Source: a virus. Taken from it: a stretch of 64,000 nt of DNA. The position numbers were made by a program, and so were the translations under genes. The notes beneath the pieces are model-generated. The model was given only the letters and a program-made list of their open reading frames with translations. It ran no database searches and was not told where the DNA came from. This document shows positions 19,195 through 40,938 of the stretch, in pieces. Numbering within the stretch: position 1 is the stretch's first letter; every line of letters begins with the position of its first letter. The stretch lies in IMG/VR virus record IMGVR_UViG_3300025759_000072, positions 25,419 through 89,418 of that record; one strand, given 5' to 3'.

Positions 19195-19461
19195 TTATTT
19201 ATTATAATTTACTTTTTTATCATTGTCAATAGATTTTTCAGTTTTATCCCATTCAAAGGTATCTCGCATTTCCAACAGACGTTTCTTATCCTTAGACCTA
19301 TCGATAATGATGTAGTTGTCTTCCTTGCACTTAATCTCTTTACAGATTACAGGCGAGAGAACAGCACCAGCAAGAGTAGCAATGATCGATACAGGCTCAA
19401 TCGCTTTTGCTGGTTGACTCAGGAAGACCAGCGGCAGCACGAAGAGAAGTCTTTTCTTCAT
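19195..19461 (-). CDS. Small exported/membrane protein
   Basis: Signal peptide MKKRLLFVLPLVFLSQPAKA. Confidence 0.65.
   Translation of the reverse strand: MKKRLLFVLPLVFLSQPAKAIEPVSIIATLAGAVLSPVICKEIKCKEDNYIIIDRSKDKKRLLEMRDTFEWDKTEKSIDNDKKVNYNK
19201..19229 (-). promoter_or_regulatory. Consensus sigma70 promoter for the tmRNA
   Basis: TTGACA-17 nt-TATAAT. Confidence 0.85.
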
Positions 19462-25348: not shown

Positions 25349-25749
25349 AATCTCAACGCAATGTCGTCAGCAATCATCTGGTCCATACCAGCGGGAGTCA
25401 TCGGATAACCACGCTGTTTGAGGATCTTAGCGACATGGGGAGATACGTAACCCTTAGTCTGAAGAGCCTGGAGAGGAGCCAAACCACTTTCTAACAGCGC
25501 AAGGTATTCTTCAACCGTGAAGTTTTCACACAAGAACTTTTTGAAAGCAACCATGCCACCACGCTTGAATCGAGCAATGAAGGCTTCTTTCGGCATACCA
25601 ATTCGACTAGGGTGGATCTTGTCTGCACCATAGACCTCATCGTATGTCTTCTGACCAGCAAAGGGTCCGACGTAGTTGAGGTACATACCGTCAAATTGGA
25701 AATTCTTGTTCACAAACTTAGTCATCTCAATCTCCTTATCAATCATCAT
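25345..25749 (-). CDS. Early hypothetical protein
   Basis: F.FDGMYL.Y..FIARFK..FKKFLCENFTVEEY..APLQAL..KGY. Confidence 0.75.
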   Translation of the reverse strand: MMIDKEIEMTKFVNKNFQFDGMYLNYVGPFAGQKTYDEVYGADKIHPSRIGMPKEAFIARFKRGGMVAFKKFLCENFTVEEYLALLESGLAPLQALQTKGYVSPHVAKILKQRGYPMTPAGMDQMIADDIALRL

Positions 25750-39577: not shown

Positions 39578-39831
39578 TATTCCATCACCGGATCTAATTG
39601 CTCTCCAACTGTCACTTGGCTGAACGGTATGTAAAACGTCCACCCCTTCTCCTTGTCTTGTACTTCATATATTTCTTGTTTACTATCTTGTGAAAGAATG
39701 ACACCTTCACGATCAAGTTCTTTATGTCCTTGAATAGGCAAATCTGCCATACTATACATGCCTCCTGGACGATTGTATCTGTCTACAGGAAACTTCTTGG
39801 TGTAAGTGCAACTGTATGTATAGTTTGTCAT
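39577..39831 (-). CDS. Hypothetical protein
   Basis: 84 aa, coupled to neighbours. Confidence 0.6.
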   Translation of the reverse strand: MTNYTYSCTYTKKFPVDRYNRPGGMYSMADLPIQGHKELDREGVILSQDSKQEIYEVQDKEKGWTFYIPFSQVTVGEQLDPVME

Positions 39832-39992
39832 TTTTTACTCACTTCTTCTATATCTGAATGAGACCAAGGGTGTGCTTCTACTTGAGCATCGGTCCAATCG
39901 TCGAACACTTTTGGTTCAAGTGTCTTTTCGTCTACCAAATAAAGCCAGTCCTCTTTATCTTTCGATAGATAAACTTTAACTTTCCAATTCAT
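39828..39992 (-). CDS. Small hypothetical protein (54 aa)
   Basis: [18 protein letters not shown]..; ATGA overlaps at both ends. Confidence 0.6.
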   Translation of the reverse strand: MNWKVKVYLSKDKEDWLYLVDEKTLEPKVFDDWTDAQVEAHPWSHSDIEEVSKK

Positions 39993-40432
39993 CCTCGCCT
40001 CATCTTCGCAATATCTTTGGCGCTCTCTTTGTCAAACACTGGCACGAGATTTGACTTATGCATCGTTGCAATCCCGAGAAGTTTACGTTCACCATTATAT
40101 ACCTTTGCTTCTTTCTTAGCCATACTTGGATGATAGAACGATTGGTCGGGGATGGAAGATTCGAACTTCCGACCCTCTGCTCCCAAAGCAGATGCGCTAC
40201 CAGGCTGCGCTAATCCCCGTGAATTGGCGATCCCGACTGGACTCGAACCAGTGACCGTCGGTTTAGAAGACCGATGCTCTAATCCAACTGAGCTACGGGA
40301 CCCAACACCCATGCGCTGAAGAAACTTGGCGTGTTCTTTCTCAGCAGCAATAAGTGACTTAGACTTATTCTTCTTCTTGCGTTTGCTGGTATTAGTGGTC
40401 GTGTAATATACAGGAAGCATATGCATAGTCAT
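39989..40432 (-). CDS. Phage hypothetical protein whose central segment is two tRNA genes
   Basis: [13 protein letters not shown].. N-terminus and ..[20 protein letters not shown]-terminus; ATGA overlaps at both ends; frame open through both tRNAs. Confidence 0.75.
40143..40219 (-). tRNA. tRNA-Pro(UGG)
   Basis: CGGGGAT acceptor; TCTGC-TTTGGGA-GCAGA anticodon arm; TTCGAAT T-loop; encoded CCA. Confidence 0.96.
40225..40302 (-). tRNA. tRNA-Arg(UCU)
   Basis: GGTCCCG acceptor; TCGGT-CTTCTAA-ACCGA anticodon arm; TTCGAGT T-loop; encoded CCA. Confidence 0.96.
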
Positions 40433-40545
40433 AACGATTTCCACCATTTCATAATCTGAAGATAAAACAAAGCAGACTGAGGATAATTAATCGGATTCGG
40501 GCAGTTTGGATATTTCTCCAACAACTCCTTTACCCAATCGTTCAT
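40429..40545 (-). CDS. Small hypothetical protein (38 aa)
   Basis: [38 protein letters not shown]; GGAG RBS; stop overlaps the next ATG. Confidence 0.55.
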   Translation of the reverse strand: MNDWVKELLEKYPNCPNPINYPQSALFYLQIMKWWKSL

Positions 40546-40656
40546 TTTCTAGATACTCCCACATCCACTCATATAATGTACTTAACTCACAGTTGTCAAC
40601 AGCCTCAGATATACGAGGATCTCTTAACCATCTTTCATATTCTAAACTATAAATTA

Positions 40657-40938
40657 TCATTTGTCAAGTAGTTTTAAAACTTCATTCCAAATTTTTTCAG
40701 GACCGTCATCGGTAGAAAATCCAATAGATTTCCCTTTCGTCATATAAACACCTCTGACAAATTCGGCAAGACCACCATCTTTCTTTACCATTTCAGCAAG
40801 TTCTTCTGGATTTTTACTCCAACCAATTCGACCATCATAATCAGCATTGTCGCTGTGTAATCTTATACCACCATTTCTAGCATGAATCAGTGTAATCATT
40901 ATCGTCTCCTCTTCAATCTTTCGATAATTGTTTTCCAA
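40657..40938 (-). CDS. Hypothetical protein
   Basis: ORF in operon; GAGGAG RBS before an internal Met. Confidence 0.55.
   Translation of the reverse strand: MENNYRKIEEETIMITLIHARNGGIRLHSDNADYDGRIGWSKNPEELAEMVKKDGGLAEFVRGVYMTKGKSIGFSTDDGPEKIWNEVLKLLDK

Follow-up and report, generated by a model that had tools for sequence, protein, structure and literature searches.

Whether one stretch of DNA can be maintained both as transfer RNA (tRNA) genes and as the middle of a protein-coding gene is the question raised by a locus in a viral genome, here analysed within a window of 64,000 nucleotides (nt) that covers positions 25,419 to 89,418 of IMG/VR record IMGVR_UViG_3300025759_000072. Functional RNA genes and protein-coding sequence are normally held to be mutually exclusive, and annotation pipelines enforce this separation. 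An earlier note, made from the letters of the window alone, had described two intact tRNA genes with encoded CCA inside an open reading frame (ORF) of 147 codons that stays open through both. Its coordinates and features prove to be right when checked with ARAGORN and Rfam, as does its reading of the ORF when the frame and the N-termini of related proteins are considered. Comparison of the relatives shows that selection keeps both readings, that is, intact cloverleaves and an uninterrupted, in-phase frame joining two conserved blocks. The favoured explanation, which we regard as probable, is that the ORF is a real gene, belonging to a small-protein family widespread in uncultured aquatic myovirus-like phages, that both readings of the 160 bases are maintained, and that the linker coded by the tRNAs is passive and tolerated.

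The locus and its protein family

The two genes, reported by ARAGORN as tRNA-Pro(tgg) and tRNA-Arg(tct), are the only tRNAs in the window and also in the whole 89-kb record. Their scores with the general Rfam tRNA model RF00005 are 66.5 and 68.3 bits, respectively, against a cut-off of 29, and in both an encoded CCA follows the match. The minus-strand frame is free of stops from 39989 to 40447 and spans both tRNAs; the N-termini of the family (MTMH...) fit a start at the ATG of 40432 and hence an ORF of 147 codons. In each tRNA a single sense phase is free of stops, the one that the host ORF uses, so that the chance of an open frame, with the window considered alone, is approximately (1/3)^3, about 0.04. 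The parts of the locus are as follows.

39989..40432, minus strand: host ORF, 147 codons plus TGA, a member of the small conserved phage protein family of phrog_27048 and relatives
40303..40432, minus strand: coding part of the N-block, a basic run followed by a helix, conserved in the family
40225..40302, minus strand: tRNA-Arg(UCU) with encoded CCA (ARAGORN; Rfam, 68.3 bits), read in its only stop-free phase
40220..40224, minus strand: 5-nt spacer between the tRNAs, which puts tRNA-Pro into its open phase
40143..40219, minus strand: tRNA-Pro(UGG) with encoded CCA (ARAGORN; Rfam, 66.5 bits), read in its only stop-free phase
39992..40142, minus strand: coding part of the C-block (...AKMRRG), with 19 residues invariant in the family and a ratio of nonsynonymous to synonymous change (pN/pS) of 0.28
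40121-40123, minus strand: internal ATG in the C-block (M of SMAKKE); the equivalent ATG in relatives is the start of a 44-amino-acid (aa) product annotated by the Joint Genome Institute (JGI)

The family was defined with the last 50 residues of the window ORF as the only query, and a tblastn search with the whole ORF was misleading in that it mostly matched translated tRNAs of unrelated phages. The C-terminal query identified 700 related protein clusters of approximately 110-190 aa, with E values of 1e-23 to 1e-13 for the best relatives, and the window ORF matches phrog_27048 at 6.9e-14. The N-block of the family reads MxMHLxGPYxTTT, followed by a basic run and the helix AExEHxKxLxKMG, while the nearly invariant motif ..DAxDIAKMRR(G) lies at the very end of the protein. 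The window ORF and 26 relatives have 19 invariant residues in common, the N-terminus of the window ORF aligns with those of the family, and the matches to hidden Markov models (HMMs) of the two blocks lie in a single stop-to-stop segment. In many members, gp114 of Delftia phage PhiW-14 among them, the variable middle is of an ordinary kind and free of tRNAs, and in others it resembles translated tRNAs. Among cultured phages just a few distant members were found, in PhiW-14, ACP17, C48C1 and BUCT-ZZ01, all of them tRNA-free, and near-identical DNA to the window occurs mainly in freshwater metagenome runs; the family essentially belongs to uncultured aquatic phages.

A Pfam search of the window ORF found no family above the cut-off, only DUF776 below the threshold, and no splicing or endonuclease domain. 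A profile search of the PDB gave nothing meaningful (best E value 0.55), and the sole match in the ESM Atlas is an unnamed viral cluster. AlphaFold2 models of one tRNA-free member and of the window protein agree in having an N-block helix and a C-terminal helix with coil between them. The N-block helix covers residues 25-40 with a predicted local distance difference test score (pLDDT) of ~88, and the tRNA-coded residues 44-98 of the window protein are coil between the two helices with a pLDDT of ~46-55. The variable linker is thus predicted to be disordered.

Frame and stem conservation among relatives

The frame statistics are based on IMG/VR and JGI metagenome loci that were anchored on the C-block alone, so that ORF calling could not bias them. 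At each locus the N- and C-blocks were searched with HMMs in all three sense frames and tRNAs were located with ARAGORN. Each scan covered the best 80 loci, a sample and not a full census of the C-block-anchored loci, of which IMG/VR has more than 590 and the JGI metagenomes have more than 450. A first scan with the full-length protein as query was skewed to fused genes and was left out of the statistics. The unique C-anchored gene regions fall into the following classes.

162 regions: N- and C-blocks in one frame, no tRNA
84 regions: other N-termini, no tRNA
38 regions: N- and C-blocks in one frame with 1-3 sense-strand tRNAs between them
2 regions: split, with tRNA (L421 and L441)
1 region: split by a frameshift, without tRNA (L230)
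2 regions: tRNA present, uninformative (L177 and L188)

All 38 unique genes with tRNAs between both blocks have one frame open through them, and every one of these tRNAs is on the sense strand. The embedded tRNAs are of at least seven kinds and have been swapped among relatives. In the 38 open genes they form 12 combinations (Arg+Pro, Arg+Ile*+Pro, Arg, Trp+Ile*+Pro, Trp+Ile*, Trp, CUA, Ile*, Met+Pro, Met, Pro and Ala, where Ile* and CUA are the unusual elements described below); the separate full-length-query scan adds Arg+Met+Pro as a thirteenth, and protein matches hint at further ones. For most of the embedded tRNAs just one of the sense phases is free of stops, and in every case the host frame uses that phase. 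Among 109 unique other tRNAs in the same loci, which serve as the control, 33 have no open sense phase at all and only 12 (11%) lie in a frame that continues open for 20 codons or more to either side, which differs from 38/38 with a Fisher p of 5e-25. At least 11 changes in tRNA content of the indel type are needed, each of which preserved length modulo three, with a probability of at most (1/3)^11 = 6e-6; a rough tree on both blocks needs 22 changes of combination.

These numbers bear directly on the idea that a G+C-rich tRNA pair happens by chance, or through an artefact of annotation, to be free of stops where it connects two small ORFs that have nothing to do with each other. Frames that run far through tRNA clusters without a stop do arise by chance, at a rate of ~11%, and one was taken as the chance baseline: at L013 (3890-4968), eight sense-strand tRNAs follow in a run ~1 kb downstream of a tRNA-free family gene, and one of the frames, over more than 130 codons that include no ATG, stays open across Ile, Pro and Glu. 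However, both flanks of the embedded tRNAs belong to one conserved protein family, and neither the excess over the control nor the run of frame-preserving indels is compatible with such a rate, so that this idea is effectively refuted and keeps a negligible probability.

The earlier note had predicted conserved N- and C-blocks around a variable middle and frame preservation wherever the middle holds tRNAs. Both predictions are borne out, with a middle that holds zero, one, two or three tRNAs, and a search for stops or frameshifts across the tRNAs, or for flanks encoded as separate genes, found no tRNA-bearing relative with a stop or frameshift across its tRNAs. The only broken lineage that bears a tRNA is that of L421 and L441 (about 1003-1623), in which 14 residues of the N-block are followed by ~330 nt with other small ORFs that replace most of it. 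The junction from tRNA-Met to the C-block is still in phase there but has no upstream start, and the break, due to an unrelated insertion, lies upstream of the tRNA. Among the uninformative regions, L177 is cut by the end of its contig. L188 (741-973) was considered as a split case and rejected, as the sequence upstream of its tRNA-Pro is unrelated and G+C-rich, probably a chimeric assembly joined at the tRNA; it is a caution for counts based on metagenomes.

The constancy of phase also argues against the idea that the tRNAs are excised and the two mRNA halves re-ligated in a splicing-like manner, to give a protein without tRNA-coded residues. T4-like phages are known to encode RNA repair enzymes, which speaks for this possibility. 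With tRNA lengths of 74, 76 and 77 nt, none a multiple of three, end-to-end excision would shift the frame, and excision would leave the phase inside the tRNAs free to vary, whereas the host frame always uses the one phase without stops; we give this idea hardly any weight.

Selection on the RNA can be followed in the stems. In tRNA-Pro, 13 embedded homologues have changes on both sides in 15 of the 22 stem pairs with almost no broken pairs, and nine embedded tRNAs of the Trp type have compensatory changes in 10/23. The two blocks of the tRNA-bearing members have pN/pS values of 0.30-0.32 (N-block) and 0.28 (C-block), so that the purifying selection on the flanks for which the earlier note had proposed a dN/dS analysis is indeed seen, at ~0.3. 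In the tRNA-coded codons pN/pS rises to 0.63-0.67 and pS is halved, the pattern expected from constraint on the RNA and not on the peptide. It is therefore very unlikely that the tRNA-like stretches once were tRNA genes and have been left with no role but that of linker codons. Their intact protein frame would suit such relics, as would the failure of certain elements of relatives with the general tRNA model, but the window tRNAs score 66-68 bits with encoded CCA, compensatory changes in the stems are abundant and broken pairs almost absent, synonymous change is suppressed in the tRNA-coded codons, and Arg and Pro are the only tRNAs that the record has.

The elements that fail the model are the Ile* elements, 92-96 nt long (L084, 1398-1489; L175, 1373-1468; L165, 388-480), which have a long variable arm, the anticodon UAU and an encoded CCA and are called Ile(tat) by ARAGORN. 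They are not listed by the general Rfam tRNA model, and their best match, 30 bits with the tRNA-Sec model, falls short of the cut-off of that model; we take them to be an unusual class-II-like tRNA with an isoleucine AUA anticodon. At L172 (1416-1489), a tRNA of the Trp(CCA) lineage with a CUA anticodon, called 'Pyl' by ARAGORN, occupies the same spot and is still read in frame; it looks like an amber-suppressor derivative.

Two possible fates of one transcript

The host ORF is embedded in a tightly packed operon, and its neighbours are the following, with one distant feature added as context.

40429..40545, minus strand: upstream ORF of 38 aa, ending in a TGA that overlaps the start codon of the host ORF (ATGA, 40429-40432)
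39828..39992, minus strand: downstream ORF of 54 aa, whose ATG overlaps the TGA of the host ORF (ATGA, 39989-39992)
18888..19233, minus strand: permuted two-piece transfer-messenger RNA (tmRNA) of the alpha type, encoded by the phage (RF04321, 89.8 bits; RF01849, 63.5 bits) and unreported by ARAGORN

The earlier note had also recorded the ATGA overlaps at both ends and had assumed a tmRNA of the phage's own; the overlaps were placed correctly and the tmRNA exists. Permuted alpha-type tmRNAs have been reported from pelagimyophage- and Melnitz-like phages (PMC9004378). A sigma-70-like site, TTGACA-17-TAGAAT, with 11/12 matches to the consensus, is found at 40639-40667 on the minus strand, ~200 nt upstream of the host ORF, where it overlaps the start of a 57-aa ORF and could drive the tRNA-carrying operon. 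The last residue of the family proteins (G, N or none) apparently depends on the way in which the gene overlaps the start codon of the one after it (GGATGA or AATGA; 39989-39994 in the window).

The overlaps suggest another reason for an open frame, namely that it is kept mainly for the movement of ribosomes, which would preserve coupling to the downstream genes and avoid polarity or degradation, with the fused protein as a by-product. Besides the ATGA at both ends of the window ORF, in approximately half of the family the stop overlaps or adjoins the start codon that follows (ATGA, GTGA or TAATG in 108 of the 224 unique family genes), the last residue being set by the overlap, and the same argument has been made for selB and ORF2 (Mukai 2021, PMC8124441). 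However, the stop-start overlap is no commoner with tRNAs (17/38) than family-wide. Because the tRNA-free members already join the N- and C-blocks and both blocks are under purifying selection in the tRNA-bearing members, the fused product is the simplest selected trait, and we consider it rather improbable that coupling is the main reason for the open frame.

In the favoured explanation, the cloverleaves would be kept for the function of the tRNAs, while spacing and phase would be kept in such a way that ribosomes read straight through the unprocessed transcript to make one polypeptide joining the N- and C-blocks, in which the 55 tRNA-coded residues would form a passive, disordered linker. 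Each copy of the transcript, we infer, would either be translated while unfolded or be folded and cut by RNase P and 3' nucleases to yield the tRNAs, so that tRNA and protein would be rivals for each RNA copy. After cutting, the 5' fragment would lack a stop codon, and the phage tmRNA could deal with fragments of this kind; the downstream part would be uncoupled. In an early operon that is tightly packed and coupled in translation, the linker would give mobile tRNA cassettes a place to land safely.

Several points weigh against this explanation. Read-through and tRNA maturation are predictions from sequence comparison, and the contigs from RNA libraries are sparse and possibly carried over from DNA. 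Among the low-depth Logan contigs of three RNA-library runs and one DNA run, one RNA-library contig covers 40220-40327 and has 25 nt on the N-block side, below the 31 nt set as the rule for bridging, and the peaks of depth over the tRNAs stem from tRNAs of other organisms. The 38 open genes are related and do not represent 38 independent events, for which the count of at least 11 indel-type changes is the conservative one. The loss of the continuous ORF in the lineage of L421 and L441 shows that the phage can do without the fused protein, at least transiently. Lastly, most tRNA-bearing members have a conserved Met just past the last tRNA, which would make separate expression of the C-block possible.

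This Met is the starting point for the view that the gene is split, with N and C parts made separately, the C part from the Met of SMAKKE, and with the frame across the tRNAs unused. JGI annotates 44-aa proteins of this kind at L164, L167, L393 and L086. The long ORF is open at these loci too, which fits gene calling that bars a coding sequence from running across a tRNA gene (a calling rule that we infer), and the 44-aa proteins differ from the long ORF only by gene calling. In at least seven unique tRNA-bearing genes there is no in-frame ATG, GTG or TTG from the last tRNA to the conserved C-core, and their C-block can therefore be produced only by read-through. The internal ATG of the window is not preceded by a Shine-Dalgarno-like GGAG, and unused frames would not remain open and in phase in 38/38 genes when the control rate is 11%. 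The split gene is accordingly an unlikely explanation. JGI annotates just the 44-aa stub at these loci, whereas in other pipelines the long ORF is called and the tRNAs are left out of account.

The family gene is often found beside other tRNAs. At L164, tRNAs for Leu, Gln and Arg (722-1017) stand directly upstream of a family gene (start at 1048) that already holds three nested tRNAs, which makes six tRNAs in ~900 nt, and the upstream Arg tRNA ends 31 nt before the start codon. Family member P0143 (329 aa; European Nucleotide Archive (ENA) contig of 1657 nt) has an HNH endonuclease with weak HNH_2/HNH_3 matches in frame between a partial and a complete tRNA-Pro; the insertion lies downstream of a tRNA of the Ile* type and the whole is still one ORF. 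A scan of IMG/VR with P0143, again covering the best 80 loci, found no HNH insertion among the loci listed. The neighbouring tRNAs and the HNH-bearing P0143 together suggest that the tRNA cassettes move and that the disordered linker tolerates their landing in a tightly packed operon, and P0143 hints that homing endonucleases move the cassettes.

A transcript with two fates, or a switch between them, is plausible from the arrangement of the locus, although a tolerant linker that serves as a safe insertion site fits the models of a disordered linker at least as well as a dedicated switch does. The more elaborate possibility of a regulatory device seems doubtful but deserves consideration. The balance between ribosome traffic and tRNA folding and processing would then set the output of tRNA and, reciprocally, the level of the fused protein and of the coupled downstream early genes, with non-stop 5' fragments cleared by the two-piece tmRNA of the phage and with homing endonucleases bringing cassettes into the linker. 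If true, such a device would be a general way for streamlined phages to gain tRNAs without intergenic gaps. Self-referential attenuation, in which the nested tRNAs would read codons upstream of themselves, was considered and rejected, for the ORF has no AGA codon and its Pro codons are merely ordinary.

The family is a replicated natural experiment: with at least 13 combinations of tRNAs, selection has maintained one stretch of DNA as tRNA and as coding sequence alike. The competition between translation and tRNA processing on one RNA is thereby open to direct test, and the family also bears on the tolerance of disordered linkers for arbitrary inserts and on the acquisition and exchange of tRNAs in phages with tightly coupled operons.

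Comparison with known systems

A literature search found no report of nested tRNAs in phage genes, and the arrangement is best understood by comparison with systems that resemble it in part. Inteins and other homing-endonuclease insertions likewise place foreign DNA in frame and preserve the reading frame of the host gene. However, inteins and group I introns have a splicing or endonuclease domain, whereas the insert of the window consists of two tRNAs and a 5-nt spacer and has no such Pfam domain, an HNH domain being seen in the relative P0143 only; in contrast to an intein, the product of the phage insert is an RNA, and the insert, when translated, stays in the protein.

A putative tRNA-Pro nested in the mitochondrial mutS gene of octocorals has been described as dual coding (Heuchel et al. 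2024, PMC11353228). It resembles the phage family in having a tRNA-like sequence within a protein-coding region, but differs in that an organelle gene holds just one such element, without swappable cassettes and of unproven function.

The phage family also shares much with the tRNA region of T4 that includes segB, where phage tRNA clusters are co-transcribed with small ORFs and homing endonuclease genes. Polycistronic phage transcripts, release of the tRNAs by host RNase P and 3' processing, a mosaic tRNA content and an associated HNH endonuclease (P0143 in the phage family) are common to both. The T4 tRNAs are intergenic, whereas those of the phage family are inside conserved coding sequence and in frame with it.

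The closest likeness is to selC, the gene for tRNA-Sec, which is nested in the selB ORF of Alphaproteobacteria and was described as the first nested tRNA gene in a bacterial ORF (Mukai 2021, Int J Mol Sci 22:4605, PMC8124441). In both cases a whole sense-strand tRNA lies in a protein ORF, in frame and with no stop, and is coded as extra residues; the stop of the ORF overlaps the next start; the arrangement is conserved across relatives; and both are bioinformatic predictions. The model put forward for selB-selC, in which tRNA folding and processing lead to a non-stop mRNA and an uncoupled downstream ORF (Mukai 2021, PMC8124441), is the same as that proposed here. The differences are also considerable. 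The tRNA in selB extends the C-terminus and is not followed by any conserved part of the protein, whereas in the phage family the tRNAs sit mid-gene between two conserved blocks, and read-through would for that reason be obligatory for the C-block. The selB locus is bacterial and has one fixed tRNA, functionally tied to the host protein and often divisible by three in length; in the phage genes the number of tRNAs varies from one to three, relatives have exchanged tRNAs of at least seven kinds, the lengths are not divisible by three, and a tie between tRNA and host protein is not known. The phage case thus works like selB-selC but is not a member of that locus type. While selB-selC, the sole published bacterial precedent, is a single fixed case at the C-terminus of a protein, the nested tRNAs of the phage family are a variant of this barely documented arrangement that offers many natural replicates and is directly testable.

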